Positions 20,571 through 52,132 of a stretch of DNA of 64,000 nt are shown piece by piece; within the stretch, counting starts at the first letter, position 1, and the number at the start of each line of letters is the position of its first letter. The position numbers and the translations under genes are program-made. The notes under the pieces are model-generated. The model ran no database searches, was not told the DNA's origin, and saw only the letters and a list, made by a program, of their open reading frames with translations. Source of the stretch: a virus (Duplodnaviria; Caudoviricetes); IMG/VR virus record IMGVR_UViG_3300033069_002007, positions 20,908 through 84,907 of that record; one strand, written 5' to 3'.

Positions 20571-21426
20571 CCCCTCTGATCTTCCAAAGATCAGTTAATA
20601 TCTGTTCGTATTTCGTATAGAAGTCTATACTGTATATCAATCTATTATTGTAATTTAACTTTCCCTTTTCAGGGAAGTGATCATAGAAATCAGGAGGAAA
20701 TAGTTTAGTCTTGAATGAACTAAAGTCAATATCATATCCTTTATATTTCATCATGTCTTGAGCATATACCGAACCAGTCTTAGTTCCATTTAACCAAGAA
20801 GTTGAATCAACACTATACCAAGGATAAGTTTTCAAGACTTCATCTGCTGTTTGACCGAGACCATGAAACTTTCTTTTATATTTAGAATTGATTTTAAATA
20901 CGATATCTAGATACTCAAACATTTGTTTTCTAGAGATAGCATTTCCTGATGATGAACCACCTAGAAAAACATACTCATATTTTTCCAAATAGTCTTCCAA
21001 TATATCTAATCGATTCCATCTTCTTTGATATACAGGAACAGGAGTCAGACCTGCTTCCTCAAGAGCTTTTGTATTCTCATCAGTAACTCTAATTGAATAG
21101 TCAATGTATTCTTGTGATACTATTCCTTGCATCGGAATATCTAGAGTTACATATGCACAGAATTTACTACCATGCTTATGAAGGAAGTCAATATAATCTT
21201 GTAGCGAGAAATCAATTACCCCAGTACTTCTAGAGAAGGCTCCTGAATCTAACATGATTCTCTTTCCACCACAGTAGGTAAAAAGATCATCAACCATTTT
21301 ATCTACTCTATCTGGATTGGATTTACTTCTAACAAAGAAAGCAAACGTAACTAAATAGTTATTATGTTCTCTATTTGTAAAGTCAAGTATACCTTTACCT
21401 TCTATACCTGCTAAGTGTATATTCAT
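20554..21426 (-). CDS. dpdA: DpdA-type DNA guanine transglycosylase (TGT fold)
   Basis: LDSGAF, TLDIP, LGG, FHGLG, SVDSTSW map onto TGT catalytic motifs; linked to folE/queD/queE. Confidence 0.85.
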   Translation of the reverse strand: MNIHLAGIEGKGILDFTNREHNNYLVTFAFFVRSKSNPDRVDKMVDDLFTYCGGKRIMLDSGAFSRSTGVIDFSLQDYIDFLHKHGSKFCAYVTLDIPMQGIVSQEYIDYSIRVTDENTKALEEAGLTPVPVYQRRWNRLDILEDYLEKYEYVFLGGSSSGNAISRKQMFEYLDIVFKINSKYKRKFHGLGQTADEVLKTYPWYSVDSTSWLNGTKTGSVYAQDMMKYKGYDIDFSSFKTKLFPPDFYDHFPEKGKLNYNNRLIYSIDFYTKYEQILTDLWKIRGVEWND

Positions 21427-33576: not shown

Positions 33577-35034
33577 ATGGCCCAAACTTCTACGATCGAC
33601 GATATTGACTCTAAACCTGAAATAGATTTCTTAGAAGAAATTAGTAACTTAATTTTTACCGCTAAATATGCTAGATGGAACGAAAAGAAAAAAAGACGAG
33701 AGACTTTAAATGAAGCAGTAGATAGAGTCTGTAAGATGCACCTTGAAAAATATTCATTCCTACCTGAGGAAGACAAAGAGAGGATTAGATGGGCATTTGA
33801 AATGGTAAAGAAGAAACGAGTAGTTCCTTCAATGCGATCTATGCAATTTGGTGGTAAAGCAGTGTTCGCTCACAATGCTAGAATGTATAATTGTGGAGTA
33901 AGACACATTGATTCACTTCGAGCATTTGCTGAAGTATTTTATTGTCTACTATGTGGAACCGGAATGACTTTAGGTCTATCTGAAAAAGTTATTTCTTTAC
34001 TTCCTAACTTAGTAAATAAAAAAGATAAAACTGGTTCTGTTGTAGCTTACGTTATTGAAGACACTATTGAAGGTTGGGCGGATGCAGTAGAAGCTCTCCT
34101 AATGTGTTACCATAAAAATACACCATTCACTGGTAGAAAGATAGTATTTGATTATTCCAAAATAAGAACTAAAGGAACACCTTTAAAAACTGGTGGTGGT
34201 AAAGCCCCTGGTCACGAAGGTCTAAAACAAACTCTTGAAAAGATTAAACAACTTCTCGATTATGCGATTGAAGAATTACATCTACAACGTCTTCGTAGTA
34301 TTGATATCTACGATATTCTTATGCATTGCGCTGACGCTGTGCTTAGCGGGGGTATTCGTCGGGCTGCAACTGCTGTTATATTCGATCCTACAGATGATCT
34401 AATGATGAACTCAAAAGTTAATTTTTCAATATCTTCCTACAAAAGATTTGAACAATTACCTTCTGGATTCTGGGAAGGAACAGTAGTAGTTAATAAGAAA
34501 AAATATGAAGTCGTTATTTCTGACTGGGAATTTGAAAACGACGTAAAAGGAAAATCTGAAATTAGTTGGAGACATATTGAACCACAGAGAGCTAGATCAA
34601 ACAACTCAGTTTTATTACTTAGAAGGGAGACAAATATTGATCAGTTAAAATATATAATCAGTAAGACGAGACAATGGGGAGAACCAGGATTTGTTTTTGC
34701 TGATCACCCTTTAACTCTTTTTAATCCTTGTATTACTGAAGACACTATACTAGAAACAGATAAAGGTAAATTGTCAGTTAAAGAAGTTATGACTAAGTTG
34801 AATAACAATGAACTAGTCTTAGTTAAGTCATTTAATCATTCCAATTCTAAATTAGAATTTCAGCAAATATTACATGGAGAGCTAACTAACTCAGATGCTG
34901 AAATATACGAAATTGAATTAGATAATGGGGAGAAAAAGAAATTTTCAAAAGGTCATAAAATATTTACTCAAAATAGAGGTTATGTTGAAATTGAAAAGTT
35001 AACTACAGAAGATGAGGTTATATTATCATGTTAA
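33577..35034 (+). CDS. nrdJ: Class II (AdoCbl) ribonucleotide reductase N-terminal fragment fused to split-intein N-half
   Basis: PSMRSMQFGG, YNCG, GTG, SGGIRRAA, RARSNNS, GEPG, ...FNP then CITEDT intein start. Confidence 0.92.
   Translation: MAQTSTIDDIDSKPEIDFLEEISNLIFTAKYARWNEKKKRRETLNEAVDRVCKMHLEKYSFLPEEDKERIRWAFEMVKKKRVVPSMRSMQFGGKAVFAHNARMYNCGVRHIDSLRAFAEVFYCLLCGTGMTLGLSEKVISLLPNLVNKKDKTGSVVAYVIEDTIEGWADAVEALLMCYHKNTPFTGRKIVFDYSKIRTKGTPLKTGGGKAPGHEGLKQTLEKIKQLLDYAIEELHLQRLRSIDIYDILMHCADAVLSGGIRRAATAVIFDPTDDLMMNSKVNFSISSYKRFEQLPSGFWEGTVVVNKKKYEVVISDWEFENDVKGKSEISWRHIEPQRARSNNSVLLLRRETNIDQLKYIISKTRQWGEPGFVFADHPLTLFNPCITEDTILETDKGKLSVKEVMTKLNNNELVLVKSFNHSNSKLEFQQILHGELTNSDAEIYEIELDNGEKKKFSKGHKIFTQNRGYVEIEKLTTEDEVILSC
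34729..35034 (+). mobile_element. Split intein N-half (IntN, 101 aa)
   Basis: C1-ITEDTILETDKG (block A), SKGHKIFT (block B variant), GYVEIEKL; then stop. Confidence 0.9.
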
Positions 35035-35705
35035 TCTATTGTGTAAACAATAATATAACCGGTCAAAATTATATAGGTCAAACTACTAAAACTTTAACTG
35101 AACGATTTGAGGAACATTGTTTAAATGGTTTTAAGTTATATAAGTCTATATTACAATATGGACGGGATAATTTTTCAATATTTCAGATTGATTCAGCTTC
35201 ATCTAAACAAGAGTTAAATATTAAAGAAAAATACTGGATTAAAAAGTATGAATCTACTGATGACACTATGGGTTTAAATATTCAAAAAGGTTCATCTAGA
35301 CTTTATTCTACTCACTCAGATAAAGTTAAACAAACGATAAAAGAGAAAACTAAACAAGGTATGTTTAACCTCTCTGACGAACGAAAAGAAACTAGAAAAA
35401 ATAAATCAAGACAAACACAAATAGATAATAATATCTATGTTAAACAAGCTGAAGTCAGAAAGGTTAAGTATCTAAACTCTGGTAATCCTAGAGCTACTCA
35501 ATTATTAATAGTTGACAAAGATGGGGTAGAGTTGGAACGGTTTGAAACAATTAAAAGTTTTATTGAGAAGTATCACTTGAATATGTCGGTTGTGATTAGT
35601 AAAATCAAAACAGGAACTAGTATCAGTAAAGGTCAATTAAAAGGTTTATTTTTAAAGACTTTGAAACCTTTAAGAACTATGAACCGTAAAACTAAAGGAG
35701 TTTAA
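35028..35705 (+). mobile_element. Free-standing GIY-YIG homing endonuclease inserted between the intein halves
   Basis: LIY...NYIGQT...RFEEH...ELNIKEKYWI...GLN. Confidence 0.88.
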
Positions 35706-35706
35706 T

Positions 35707-35922
35707 ATGGAAATAAAAAAAGTAGTATTAGCAAATGACTTAGATGGTAACGTTTTAGTTAAAAAAATTATTAATTCTGAAGTTGAGGGATATGAAGCAG
35801 TTAACCAAACTTATAAGACTGTTAAAGTTAAGTCAGTTACGAAAATAAAAAATGAAGCGGTATACGATATTGCAGTAAATAATAATCAAAATTTCTTTGC
35901 TGATGATTTGTTAGTTCATAAT
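35707..35922 (+). mobile_element. Split intein C-half (IntC, 72 aa)
   Basis: Blocks F/G ending His-Asn, followed by +1 Cys at 35923. Confidence 0.9.
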
Positions 35923-36927
35923 TGTTTCGAGATTGGATTCATACCAGTAACTAAAGATGGTAGATTTGGAGTTCAGTTCTGTAACCTTTCTGAAGAAAAT
36001 GGAGCAAAGATTACTTCATTACTTGAATGGGAAGAGTCAACTGAAGCAGCGACTATTATTGGAACCCTTCAAGCAGGATATACTGAATTTCCTTACTTGA
36101 ACAAAGCTTCACAAGAATTAACTGAAGAGGAAGCACTTCTTGGTGTCTCTGTAACTGGTTGGTTTGATAATCCTGAAGTTTTATTTGACGCTAAGAATGA
36201 ATTCTTTATGGCTAAGTTGTCAACAAAGATTAACAAAGAATGGGCTGCTAAAATTAATATTAACACTGCTGCTAGAATAACATGCACTAAACCTAGTGGA
36301 ACAGCTAGTATCTTTCTTGGTTCATCTTCCGGTATTCATCCTCATCATGATCACAGATATTTCCGTAGAGTTCAAATGAATAAGTTAGATAATATTCATC
36401 AATACTTTAAAATGTTTAACCCTCATGCTGTAGAAGAATCTGTTTGGTCAGCAACTAAAACAGATGATGTTATTACTTTCCCTCTAACTGTTCCCAAAAC
36501 AGCTAAGGTTAAAAATGACATCACTGCTATTCAACACCTTAATCTAATCAGACAAGTTCAAGAGAATTGGGTAACACCTGGAACAACAGAAAATAATAAA
36601 AAACCAGTTTCTCATAATGTGAGTTGTACCGTTGAAGTAGATGAAGGAGAATGGGATGATGTAATTGATTACTTATTTTTAAATAAGAACTCATTTGCAG
36701 CAGTAGCTCTACTTGGTAAAACAGGAGATAAGGATTATCCTCAACCTCCTTTGAGTCGAGTCTATCCTGAATTAGAAGAAGCTTGGTTAAATCTAAAATC
36801 TAATTGGTCTAAAATGGATTACACCAAATTTGAAGAAACAGAAGATATGACATCACTTATTGAGAACCTAGCTTGTGCTGGTGGAGCTTGTGATGTAACA
36901 AATTTACCAGTAGATAAAAAGGAATAA
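35707..36927 (+). CDS. nrdJ: Split-intein C-half fused to NrdJ C-terminal fragment
   Basis: VYDIAV...NFFADDLLVHN|CFEIG; TCTKPSGT, HNVSCT, C-terminal CAGGAC; own AGGAG SD. Confidence 0.92.
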   Translation: MEIKKVVLANDLDGNVLVKKIINSEVEGYEAVNQTYKTVKVKSVTKIKNEAVYDIAVNNNQNFFADDLLVHNCFEIGFIPVTKDGRFGVQFCNLSEENGAKITSLLEWEESTEAATIIGTLQAGYTEFPYLNKASQELTEEEALLGVSVTGWFDNPEVLFDAKNEFFMAKLSTKINKEWAAKININTAARITCTKPSGTASIFLGSSSGIHPHHDHRYFRRVQMNKLDNIHQYFKMFNPHAVEESVWSATKTDDVITFPLTVPKTAKVKNDITAIQHLNLIRQVQENWVTPGTTENNKKPVSHNVSCTVEVDEGEWDDVIDYLFLNKNSFAAVALLGKTGDKDYPQPPLSRVYPELEEAWLNLKSNWSKMDYTKFEETEDMTSLIENLACAGGACDVTNLPVDKKE

Positions 36928-48885: not shown

Positions 48886-51045
48886 ATGTTAGTTCTTAGA
48901 CGATTAAAAATAAAAGATTTTAAAAACATTCCTTATTTGGAAATTGACTTTGAAAATTATAACCTTATTTCTGGTAATAATGGATCAGGTAAAAGTTCCA
49001 TACTTCAAGCAATAAGATTATTACTAACTAATACCCTACCAGAAAAACTAGCTGAATATATTAGATGGGGACAAGAAGGATTTGAACTTCAGTTAATATT
49101 TGAATTTCAAGGAATTGAATACTCCTATAAATATGAGTATGACACTTCATCTAAGAAAGAGTTAAAATTCAATGATGTCGTTTTAAAAGGAACTGATGCT
49201 AGTTCTAAACTAGAAGAATTCGTAAATGCTGAATTACTTCTTTACAGTTCTATCTCTGAACAAGGACAAAGTTATTCTATATTAAATGAAAGTCCTGCTA
49301 AGAGATTAGAACGATTTAAAACAATTCTAGGAGTTGAAAGACTTTCCAGAATAATTGAAGTCGCAAAAGAAAAAGTAAAGCTAAAAAAATCTGAAGCTGA
49401 TCTATTGGATAAGGAAGTAAAAACTCTTCAAGGAGTTAAATATTCTTATTTTGAACAAATAACTCTACCAGATATTCAGGCAATACAAGCGGAACTTGAA
49501 AAACAAGAAAAAGAGAAAGCGGAAAAAGAAGAATTTGATAAGATTAAACAAGAATGGTCTATAAGGAAATCAGAATACGACAAAACCATAACTAGACAAG
49601 AAGAGTTAAACTCCTTGATTCAATTTAAGAAGTCTGAAGTATTTGGTCTTCAGAAAGTTGATTTCAATATTGAAACATATAATAATTTATTGACTCAGAA
49701 ACAAACGGAAGAGCTAGAGGAACAAAAGTATAAGACTGAACGATTACAATACTCTAACTATAAGAAGTCTCTATCTGAACTACAGTCCGAACTAGATAGA
49801 TTAAATGACAATAAACTCAAACATAGATTATTTAGACTATCTCCTCTATCATTCTCCAAAGAGGATTTAATTAAGTTAAACGAACTTATTAACAATTTAA
49901 AAGTTGATCTTAAACAAATTGATAATCACATCCTCTTAGCTAAAGAAGGTAAATGTTCAACATGTGGTCAAGATTTTAAACACTCTCCTGATGAACTCGA
50001 AGCAAAGAGTTTTACTATACAGGAACAAATAAAAAATTTAGAGTCAGAGAGTCAAGATAAAAGACAACAACTAATTGATTACGATAAAAAGGTTGAATCT
50101 AATAAACAAACAACTGAAAAAGTAAAAGAAATTGATTCGGATATAGAACGAATAATTTTAAAGTTAAAACAACTTACTATAGTAAATGAACCGGTTGAAA
50201 AGACATTTAATGTTTCACATATAGATGAACAAATTAAAAGTTTGAAGGAAGTTAAAAACTTATTTGATTCTTGTCAGACTAAAGAAAAAGAATTATTAGA
50301 TGCAATAACTAAGTATGAAATTGAGTTAAAAACTCTATCTACCACTGATCCAGGAGAATCACCGGTTCAACCGAGACGATTTGGGTTCGATAGCATTAAA
50401 TATGAAGAGTTAAAAAAAGAAATAAATATATACGATCAAAAAGTAGCTGAGAAAAAACGTATAGAGGAACATAACGATAAGATTGAGAAAGAAGAAAAAG
50501 AAAATAAACTTAAGATCAAGGATATAGAAACTCAGTATTATGCTTGTCTAGGTGAATCCAAAGAATATGAGGAAGCTCGTAATATCCTAGAGAAAAACTT
50601 TTCATCCTTCTTGATTGAAAAAGGGACTCAATATGTTGAGTCTAAAATGAATTCATTCTTTCAAAAATGTTATCCTAAATACTCAGTTCTATTTAAACAA
50701 ACAGAAAATAAAAAGAGTATCGATTTCTATTATACCGACAATGAAACCGAAACTATAGCATCAGCATCACTTTGTAGTGGATTTGAAAAACAATTGTTGT
50801 CGATAGCATTTAGAGTAGCTCTTGCTTCAATTACTTCAATGGGATTCTTGATCCTAGATGAGGTTGACTCAGATGCTAGTTCTGAGAATTCTATCTCCTT
50901 ATATAGTAATTTGATTGATTCGGATATATTTTCACAACTATTGGTTGTGTCTCATAAAGCAGAGACTAAGGAAATGCTTGTAAATGAATATTATGCTAAA
51001 GAAATAAATCTTATGAATGGGGAAATGACGGAACATACTAATTAA
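48886..51045 (+). CDS. sbcC: SbcC/Rad50/gp46-like SMC ATPase
   Basis: GNNGSGKSS, coiled coils, CSTC zinc hook, CSGFE signature, ILDE, VVSH. Confidence 0.92.
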   Translation: MLVLRRLKIKDFKNIPYLEIDFENYNLISGNNGSGKSSILQAIRLLLTNTLPEKLAEYIRWGQEGFELQLIFEFQGIEYSYKYEYDTSSKKELKFNDVVLKGTDASSKLEEFVNAELLLYSSISEQGQSYSILNESPAKRLERFKTILGVERLSRIIEVAKEKVKLKKSEADLLDKEVKTLQGVKYSYFEQITLPDIQAIQAELEKQEKEKAEKEEFDKIKQEWSIRKSEYDKTITRQEELNSLIQFKKSEVFGLQKVDFNIETYNNLLTQKQTEELEEQKYKTERLQYSNYKKSLSELQSELDRLNDNKLKHRLFRLSPLSFSKEDLIKLNELINNLKVDLKQIDNHILLAKEGKCSTCGQDFKHSPDELEAKSFTIQEQIKNLESESQDKRQQLIDYDKKVESNKQTTEKVKEIDSDIERIILKLKQLTIVNEPVEKTFNVSHIDEQIKSLKEVKNLFDSCQTKEKELLDAITKYEIELKTLSTTDPGESPVQPRRFGFDSIKYEELKKEINIYDQKVAEKKRIEEHNDKIEKEEKENKLKIKDIETQYYACLGESKEYEEARNILEKNFSSFLIEKGTQYVESKMNSFFQKCYPKYSVLFKQTENKKSIDFYYTDNETETIASASLCSGFEKQLLSIAFRVALASITSMGFLILDEVDSDASSENSISLYSNLIDSDIFSQLLVVSHKAETKEMLVNEYYAKEINLMNGEMTEHTN

Positions 51046-51109: not shown

Positions 51110-52132
51110 ATGAATCCTACTCAATTAGTATCCAATCCCAAAAAATATTATTATTTGGTTTATCAAACTACGAACTTAGTTAACGGTATGATTTATGTTG
51201 GAGTTCATGCAACAAAAAATATAAATGATAACTATTTAGGAAGTGGTAAATACCTTTGTGATGCAATAAAACAATTTGGAGTAGATAATTTTAAGCGAGA
51301 TATTCTCTTTCTATGTTCCTCAAAAGAAGAAATGTTAGAAAAAGAAAAACAAATAGTATCTAATGAATTTAGAAACAGACAAGACACTTATAATAAAAAT
51401 ATAGGAGGAGGTGGAAGATTTAATGCTTTAGGATTAGAGGTTCCATTGGAAACTAGGAAAAAATTAAGTGAATTTCAAAAAGGGAAACCTAAACCTCGTT
51501 GGAAATTAGAAAGAAGAGAAAAAATGAAGGAATCTATGAAAGACAAAATATGGATTCATAAAAGAGAAGGGGAACTTTTGACTTCTACGATGATTAAGAA
51601 ACATTTGATTCAGACATATATAGTAGATATGGGATGGTTAATTGGAAGAGGTAGACTTCAATCAAATGAGGAAAAATTAAAACGAGCTAATTCTAATCGA
51701 GGTAAAAAAAGAAGTAAAGAATATTGTGTCTATAGGCGAGAAAAGATGACTGGAAATAATAATATTGCTCGTACTCACCCTAAGTCTAAAGAATCTTATC
51801 GAAAAATAGTTAAAACAAGAAGGAATAACAGTTCAAATTGGCATTCAGAAGAAACTAAGAAAAAAATAGTTGAAACTAGACGAAGGAACGGATCGTATAT
51901 TGTTACTCAAGAATCAAAGGATAAAATGAGTAAAGCACATAAAGGAAAACCAGGACATCCTCATACACAAGAAAGTAAAAAGAAGATTGGTGAAGCAAAT
52001 AAAAAACATAAGGGTAAATTTCAATGGTTAACTTTTGATAATAAAAATTATCAAATAAAAACAGAATTAGTACAAAAGTATTTATTATTAGGTTATGTTA
52101 AAGGTAGATTAAATTTTAATCCTCATAAATAG
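51110..52132 (+). mobile_element. Free-standing GIY-YIG homing endonuclease with NUMOD3 repeats
   Basis: LVY...IYVGVH...YLGSG; HSEETKKKI / HTQESKKKIGEA repeats. Confidence 0.88.

Follow-up and report, generated by a model that had tools for sequence, protein, structure and literature searches.

Background

Fractured genes were described in 2009 by Dassa, London, Stoddard, Schueler-Furman and Pietrokovski in Nucleic Acids Research (NAR) (PMC2677866; Dassa 2009 below). In such a gene an N-extein is followed by the N-terminal half of an intein (IntN), then comes a separate endonuclease gene, and then the C-terminal intein half (IntC) with the C-extein. The fractured loci from Global Ocean Sampling (GOS) were gp41-1 to gp41-8, IMPDH-1 to IMPDH-3, NrdA-1 to NrdA-7, and NrdJ-1 and NrdJ-2. 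The subject here is an nrdJ gene from the metagenomic Caudoviricetes record IMGVR_UViG_3300033069_002007. It lies in a stretch of 64,000 nucleotides (nt), positions 20,908 to 84,907 of that record. This whole stretch is called the window, and positions below are positions in the window. Going by its gene layout, the nrdJ gene at 33577–36927 is fractured in the way that Dassa 2009 described, and a fresh example of an arrangement known since then.

The window has the gene order given above. As in the fractured genes of Dassa 2009, the endonuclease is of the GIY-YIG type, the frames overlap or closely abut, a hairpin lies at the start of the endonuclease gene, the IntN is acidic, the origin is a phage, and the host is a ribonucleotide reductase (RNR). 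There are also differences. The IntC of the window is 72 amino acids (aa) long, versus 33–54 aa for the canonical split points in Dassa 2009 (PMC2677866). Block B has a Ser where those fractured genes have a Thr. And the lineage of this intein has contiguous relatives at its own site, whereas the split inteins of Dassa 2009 were described as not close to regular inteins.

The nearest solved relative of the window intein, both by sequence and by fold, is NrdJ-1 (PDB 8UBS and 9OMB). The two have the same split position at the end of IntN and reside in the same host enzyme class, NrdJ. They differ in where they sit: NrdJ-1 is inserted after the thiyl-radical Cys, while in the window this Cys is itself the +1 nucleophile. 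In NrdJ-1 the +1 residue is Ser, and its IntC measures 41 aa. Because the insertion points are one residue apart, the window intein can be called a relative of NrdJ-1 and not its allele. An earlier look at the sequence alone, the initial annotation, had placed the locus with the known fractured genes of the NrdJ-1 and gp41-1 types. The arrangement is indeed that of Dassa 2009, with the proviso that the insertion point is one residue away from that of NrdJ-1.

It is very probable that this is a fractured nrdJ, with a GIY-YIG gene inside a mini-intein at the NP/C site, that the two halves splice, and that the endonuclease spreads the cassette.

Gene layout

Three closely packed open reading frames (ORFs) lie on the + strand, at 33577–35034 (ORF1, 485 aa), 35028–35705 (ORF2, 225 aa) and 35707–36927 (ORF3, 406 aa). 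ORF1 starts with the nrdJ N-extein (33577–34728, 384 aa), which ends in PLTLFNP. Directly after this comes the IntN (34729–35031, 101 aa), which starts with CITEDT, has SKGH as its block B and ends in EVILSC, with the stop codon at 35032–35034. The ORF boundaries agree with the initial annotation, which had a gene ending in TLFNP and then a Cys-led IntN of 101 aa.

The stop of this N gene, a TAA, is overlapped by the ATG of the endonuclease gene at 35028, in TCATGTTAA. The ATG falls within the final two sense codons of the N gene, those for Ser and Cys. This overlap with a GIY-YIG frame had also been noticed before, and the Pfam score of ORF2, given below, is above the cut-off. The frame of ORF2 is not that of the nrdJ halves.

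One base past the endonuclease stop, at 35707, is the ATG of the IntC gene. A Shine-Dalgarno sequence (AGGAG, 35696–35700, +) can be read 6 nt upstream of it, which argues that 35707 is the true start, and that the IntC therefore has 72 aa (35707–35922). The IntC ends in VHN and the C-extein begins at 35923 with CFEIG, in agreement with what was first read there. A scan for sigma-70 promoters and terminators gave nothing better than shuffles.

Seen as sequence, the locus has all the parts of a fractured gene: two halves on the same strand, an IntN and an IntC, a separate endonuclease ORF, and a hairpin. Both nrdJ halves are in one reading frame, and across the endonuclease region this frame has 26 stops. 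The window proteins are each recorded, in identical form, on two contigs. Other samples yielded eight C-halves (395–414 aa) that begin at the matching position, also with a long IntC.

The reductase and its predicted spliced product

ORF1 and ORF3 match different parts of the same protein. On PHROG 367 (ribonucleotide reductase, 701 positions), ORF1 covers 33–388 and ORF3 covers 397–698. The N-extein, annotated as a class II B12-dependent ribonucleotide reductase, contains the B12-RNR insertion domain (Pfam PF21995, 32.4 bits versus a cut-off of 27). ORF1 also matches PDB 1L1L, the L. leichmannii RTPR, with an E-value of 7.5e-7. This is the sole RNR structure matched in PDB.

The C-extein (35923–36927, +, 334 aa plus stop) starts after the intein with CFEIGFIPVTKDG, where the Cys of CFEIGF is the thiyl-radical Cys, and ends in ACAGGAC, which holds a Cys pair. 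It aligns to 1L1L residues 523–738, terminal C-GGAC included. The HMMER alignment to 1L1L leaves the stretch with the thiyl Cys uncovered and yields no residue number for it; this Cys was identified via the N-x-C-x-E motif and Dassa 2009 (PMC2677866). With its B12-RNR insertion domain, its N-x-C-x-E finger loop (NPCFE) and its C-terminal Cys pair, the nrdJ of the window is by these features a monomeric, RTPR-like class II ribonucleotide reductase.

Relatives without an intein tell what a spliced product should look like. The proteins P0009–P0012 (704–711 aa) read ...TLFNPCFEIGFIPVTKDG..., which equals the end of the window N-extein plus the start of its C-extein, and the junction in these uninterrupted homologues reads NPCFEIGFIPVTKDG. 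It had been proposed that trans-splicing would rebuild NPCFEI, and the predicted junction is that of the homologues, letter for letter. This agreement, and the match of the IntN to PDB 8UBS given below, go well beyond chance.

The intein halves

The IntN matches PDB 8UBS, the NrdJ-1 intein, with an E-value of 1.6e-11 and around 40% identity (ORF1 residues 389–483 versus 9–106). It is acidic, with a net charge of −6. Pfam Intein_splicing is matched in two parts, positions 2–93 at the end of ORF1 (21.0 bits) and positions 118–155 at the start of ORF3 (25.7 bits).

The latter match is to the canonical part of the IntC (35809–35922, +, 38 aa), which holds blocks F and G (VYDIAV...NFFADDLLVHN) and reads ...VYDIAVNNNQNFFADDLLVHN at its C-terminus. 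This part also aligns to 8UBS residues 116–148 and to the Spl DnaX mini-intein. The 8UBS match is weak (E 0.12) and takes in IntC residues 39–72 only, the final 34.

The residues of a class 1 intein are present: Cys1, the block B His, the penultimate His, the terminal Asn and the +1 Cys. Across the eight IntC relatives D54, H71, N72 and C73 are invariant.

The fold was modelled on the contiguous intein of a relative, L082, only, with an alignment of 43 rows. An earlier AF2 model from 12 rows had a pLDDT of 60.6 and an unusable C-terminal half, and the 43-row alignment was used instead. The resulting AlphaFold model has a pLDDT of 84.5 and a pTM of 0.80, and its core is a Hint fold. When compared to PDB, its top matches are all inteins, with the NrdJ-1 fusion 8UBS as the best one (TM 0.85, normalised to the target). 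From this we infer that the window holds a Hint-fold class 1 split intein of the NrdJ-1 type, which would splice in trans.

Insertion site and relatives

The insertion point is between NP and C, directly N-terminal of the thiyl Cys (NP/C...HN/CFE). According to Dassa 2009, this is the most frequent intein site in RNRs, also used by the fractured NrdA genes, and NrdJ-1 and NrdJ-2 are located one residue C-terminal of it (PMC2677866). Since the window intein is inserted one residue upstream of the NrdJ-1 point, it is at the classical thiyl-Cys site and not at the site of NrdJ-1. It shares this point with NrdA-1 to NrdA-7, whose host enzymes are of class I, and with contiguous RIR1 inteins.

Contiguous NrdJ inteins occur at exactly this point in L003, L004, L005, L006, L025, L069, L073 and L083, from IMG/VR, JGI-metagenome and whole-genome shotgun (WGS) data. 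The full-length inteins in L003, L004, L005 and L025 have what by eye look to be nested endonuclease domains of the LAGLIDADG type, and belong to lineages other than that of the window. One other lineage at the NP/C site (CQPAW...VSN) comes in two sizes, as a mini-intein of 139 aa in L006:3043-5583 and with 316 aa in L025:2515-5586, where an endonuclease-like domain is nested in it.

To place this in context, 78 related loci with both extein parts, from IMG/VR, a metagenome scan and a genome scan, were classified. Of these, 68 have no insertion at the NP/C site, and the other 10 have an in-frame intein at precisely this point. The split arrangement is at no other locus among the 78.

Two contiguous mini-inteins at the NP/C site belong to the window's own intein lineage. 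P0016 is a 923-aa NrdJ with a mini-intein of 188 aa, and L082:5626-6228, from the metagenome scan, is a mini-intein of 201 aa. Over aligned columns they are 38–46% identical to the IntN and IntC slices of the window. Site, lineage and a hairpin segment, described below, are as in the window. Unlike the window intein, they are uninterrupted, read TPxH in block B, and have a linker of 20–25 residues at the place of the split. In the split form a stop, the endonuclease gene and a start are found in place of this linker.

Among split relatives, the N-half P0014 is 72% identical overall and 59% in its IntN, and it has the same VILSC terminus. Given that in the window the Ser-Cys codons of VILSC hold the endonuclease ATG, this suggests, indirectly, that the P0014 locus may have a matching overlap.

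In a maximum-likelihood tree the eight split-bearing NrdJ C-exteins form one clade (SH-like support 0.78), with P0016 outside of it. Their C-exteins are 59–75% identical and have long invariant blocks. The simplest reading of these sequences is that the gene was fractured once and then inherited vertically, and that the intein lineage itself has moved between NrdJ clades. Such a single-fracture history fits the gene-fracture model of Dassa 2009.

Three further observations concern the nrdJ relatives. P0015 (736 aa) is a C-half with a long IntC that also has a second full-length in-frame intein (HNVSC, then the intein ending in THN, then CTVEV). Given both, this nrdJ is fractured as well as interrupted by an intein. 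In L007:2416-5496, and also in L008 and L015, a phage NrdJ has an in-frame intein of around 307 aa at a second site (ARIFN, then C...TGN, then CATRHIDS), which corresponds to NCGVRHIDS in the window N-extein; this is another Cys-preceding site. The only GTDB matches to this NrdJ clade are uninterrupted genes in L084 (a Candidatus Dependentiae metagenome-assembled genome (MAG), 226-kb contig) and L085 (a Sediminibacterium MAG, 211-kb contig). These may be large-phage contigs binned with bacteria.

The long IntC and the Ser in block B

The canonical part of the IntC is preceded by a segment of 34 aa (35707–35808, +), MEIKKVVLANDLDGNVLVKKIINSEVEGYEAVNQ. All eight IntC relatives keep it, with the pattern VV-x-x-T-x-x-G-x-x-I-x-KKI...GY. 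In the alignments its counterpart in the contiguous mini-inteins P0016 and L082 is internal, with the linker that is replaced in the split form just upstream. Residues 132–149 of the L082 model, the counterpart of the segment, form a beta-hairpin (pLDDT around 70–76), followed by a poorly defined loop at 150–167. The hairpin is located at the point where nested endonucleases are usually inserted. Compared to NrdJ-1, the window lineage has an insertion of some 30–50 residues ahead of block F, made up of the hairpin and the loop. Related mini-inteins (132–160 aa) in the top 150 library matches mostly do not have the segment, and a minority has insertions there.

This changes how the length of the IntC is to be understood. 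The initial annotation had remarked on about 33 extra N-terminal residues, and at 72 aa the IntC is indeed longer than canonical ones. A new N-terminal appendage was considered as the explanation and rejected, given the internal counterpart in P0016 and L082. Judging from the alignments, the 31 to 34 or so additional residues are an ancestral internal segment of the intein lineage. The mean pairwise identity is 36% in the segment, compared to 62% in the remaining IntC and 65.5% in the C-extein, which means that the segment evolves faster than both.

Block B was also singled out early on, as SxxH where TxxH is usual. It does read SKGH, and so does P0014; these two are the only split N-halves found, and contiguous relatives have TPEH or TPNH. 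Ser retains the hydroxyl of Thr. SxxH is best read as a lineage trait and not as decay.

A bolder idea is that the long-IntC, SxxH lineage is a functionally distinct subfamily of split inteins. The segment might then pre-organise the IntC or clamp the IntN, and splicing might be fast and orthogonal to NrdJ-1, gp41-1 and Npu. This is speculative, and on balance rather unlikely. A comparison of L082 or P0016 with the window pair would also show directly how a mini-intein adapts after fracture by an endonuclease gene.

The endonuclease and the hairpin

ORF2 (35028–35705, +) matches the GIY-YIG family (Pfam PF01541) over residues 3–76, with an E-value of 5.7e-9 and 36.6 bits, versus a cut-off of 22.6. 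It also matches PHROGs 314, 7168 and 5123, all "homing endonuclease", with E-values from 3e-17 to 2e-12, and is 25–31% identical to annotated Seg-like phage endonucleases. Residues 100–225 match no Pfam family, and a phmmer search of PDB gave chance-level matches only. From the family matches ORF2 is in all likelihood a free-standing GIY-YIG homing endonuclease that would cleave DNA.

The start of this gene is enclosed in an RNA hairpin (35016–35060, +). A repeat search and folding find perfect 11-nt arms at 35016–35026 and 35050–35060, 100% complementary, with the endonuclease ATG in between. Half of the endonuclease's GAGG Shine-Dalgarno sequence (35014–35017) is paired. The 61-nt fold at the endonuclease start has −13.0 kcal/mol and a z-score of −2.63, and 2 out of 200 shuffles are equally good. 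Folds of 111 nt around both gene junctions are not significant. Dassa 2009 reports hairpins in 15 of the 16 endonuclease leaders of fractured genes (PMC2677866), and by analogy the hairpin in the window may regulate translation of the endonuclease.

Two other GIY-YIG matches were noted in the surroundings. A second free-standing gene is found at 51110–52132 (+, 340 aa), with C-terminal repeated motifs that by eye are NUMOD3-like. It lies between a gene for an SbcC-like ATPase (48886–51045) and the next gene, and splits no gene. A third match is upstream of the window (G000:C1:6239-6460, −).

How the locus would work, and what else it could be

The proposed course of events is as follows. A free-standing GIY-YIG gene would have ended up within the coding region of a mini-intein, leaving two genes with one intein half each. 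Both nrdJ halves would be produced from one operon, after which the negatively charged IntN and the IntC would come together in an NrdJ-1-type Hint fold. Class 1 splicing would then proceed with Cys1, the block B Ser and His, the block F Asp, the terminal His-Asn and the +1 Cys. This would join ...LFNP to CFEIG..., recreating the N-x-C-x-E finger-loop motif and with it the active site. Since the Cys in this motif doubles as +1 nucleophile and thiyl-radical residue, enzyme activity should require splicing. As its start overlaps the upstream stop and lies buried in the 11-bp hairpin, the endonuclease would presumably be made in small or regulated amounts. In co-infecting relatives it would cut nrdJ alleles that have no endonuclease, and thereby spread along with the intein halves.

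Several things weigh against this. Splicing and cleavage are predictions from the sequence. Both Pfam intein matches fall under the curated cut-off of 35.8, as expected for half domains, and the Thr of block B is replaced. No second three-gene arrangement was found in the IMG/VR, JGI metagenome and GTDB genome scans, which returned only uninterrupted nrdJ genes, contiguous inteins and distant relatives of the endonuclease. That relatives conserve an endonuclease between their halves rests only on the VILSC end of P0014. The C-extein tree, finally, has no true outgroup and is arbitrarily rooted, and support for the split clade is moderate.

Of the rival explanations, the one that survives best is that the intein halves do not splice, and serve as mere interaction domains that hold the NrdJ fragments together non-covalently, much as with the NrdA fragments of Aeromonas phage Aeh1. 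There is precedent for a working RNR put together from pieces once an endonuclease had invaded (PMC3045599; discussed in PMC2677866), and the change from Thr to Ser in block B could be taken as a hint of lost splicing, were it not that Ser keeps the hydroxyl. Cys1, the block B His, the block F Asp, the His-Asn pair and the +1 Cys are all intact, and the IntC ones are invariant across the eight relatives. In addition, the protein is broken at the thiyl Cys, whose finger loop occupies the barrel centre, and around 170 unspliced intein residues would be left in the active site. This makes the non-covalent explanation quite unlikely.

It is also conceivable that a selfish endonuclease disrupted nrdJ, and that the gene is a decaying pseudogene that no longer makes an active reductase. 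Dwivedi et al. 2013 proposed that degeneration is under way in some of the phage RNR genes into which mobile elements have inserted (PMC3653736). The halves of the window gene are full-length open frames without internal stops, however, that jointly reach from 33 to 698 on PHROG 367, and both the N-x-C-x-E motif and the C-terminal Cys pair are kept. The C-extein identities of 59–75% with their long invariant blocks moreover point to purifying selection. Decay is therefore very improbable.

An assembly error or frameshift might also have broken up a contiguous intein that has an endonuclease domain nested in it. Even for a metagenomic record whose nrdJ halves share a reading frame this is hardly credible: 26 stops interrupt the frame within the endonuclease region, the endonuclease gene has a start codon to itself, a strong Shine-Dalgarno sequence precedes the IntC gene, the proteins are identical on two contigs each, and independent relatives from other samples begin or end at the same residues. 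This leaves trans-splicing of a fractured nrdJ as the preferred reading.

Relevance and other observations

Split inteins related to NrdJ-1 rank with the fastest, and are in wide use for protein ligation. As a natural relative of NrdJ-1, around 40% identical and with a Cys at the +1 position of the junction, the window intein is a candidate for an orthogonal tool. The biotechnological use foreseen in the initial annotation is plausible, and would be incremental.

The other point of interest is evolutionary. Within one lineage, a single site is seen in three states: the uninterrupted nrdJ, the contiguous mini-inteins and the fractured form. With these three states present, the gene-fracture model of 2009 can be compared within one lineage. 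Neither the tool nor the evolutionary point alters current understanding; the locus is a well-documented new example.

In L079:4047-4676 and L080:282-1004, terminase large-subunit genes have inteins that end in LVHN, followed by CFEG. In another frame within the intein-coding region an HNH-like ORF is open (HH...N...H motifs, around 210–240 aa), while in-frame the middle of these inteins looks low-complexity.

Two library proteins, P0076 (745 aa) and P0115 (386 aa), have IntC-like sequence at their N-terminus and end in an IntN-like piece. Both look to be middle fragments from genes that were fractured twice.

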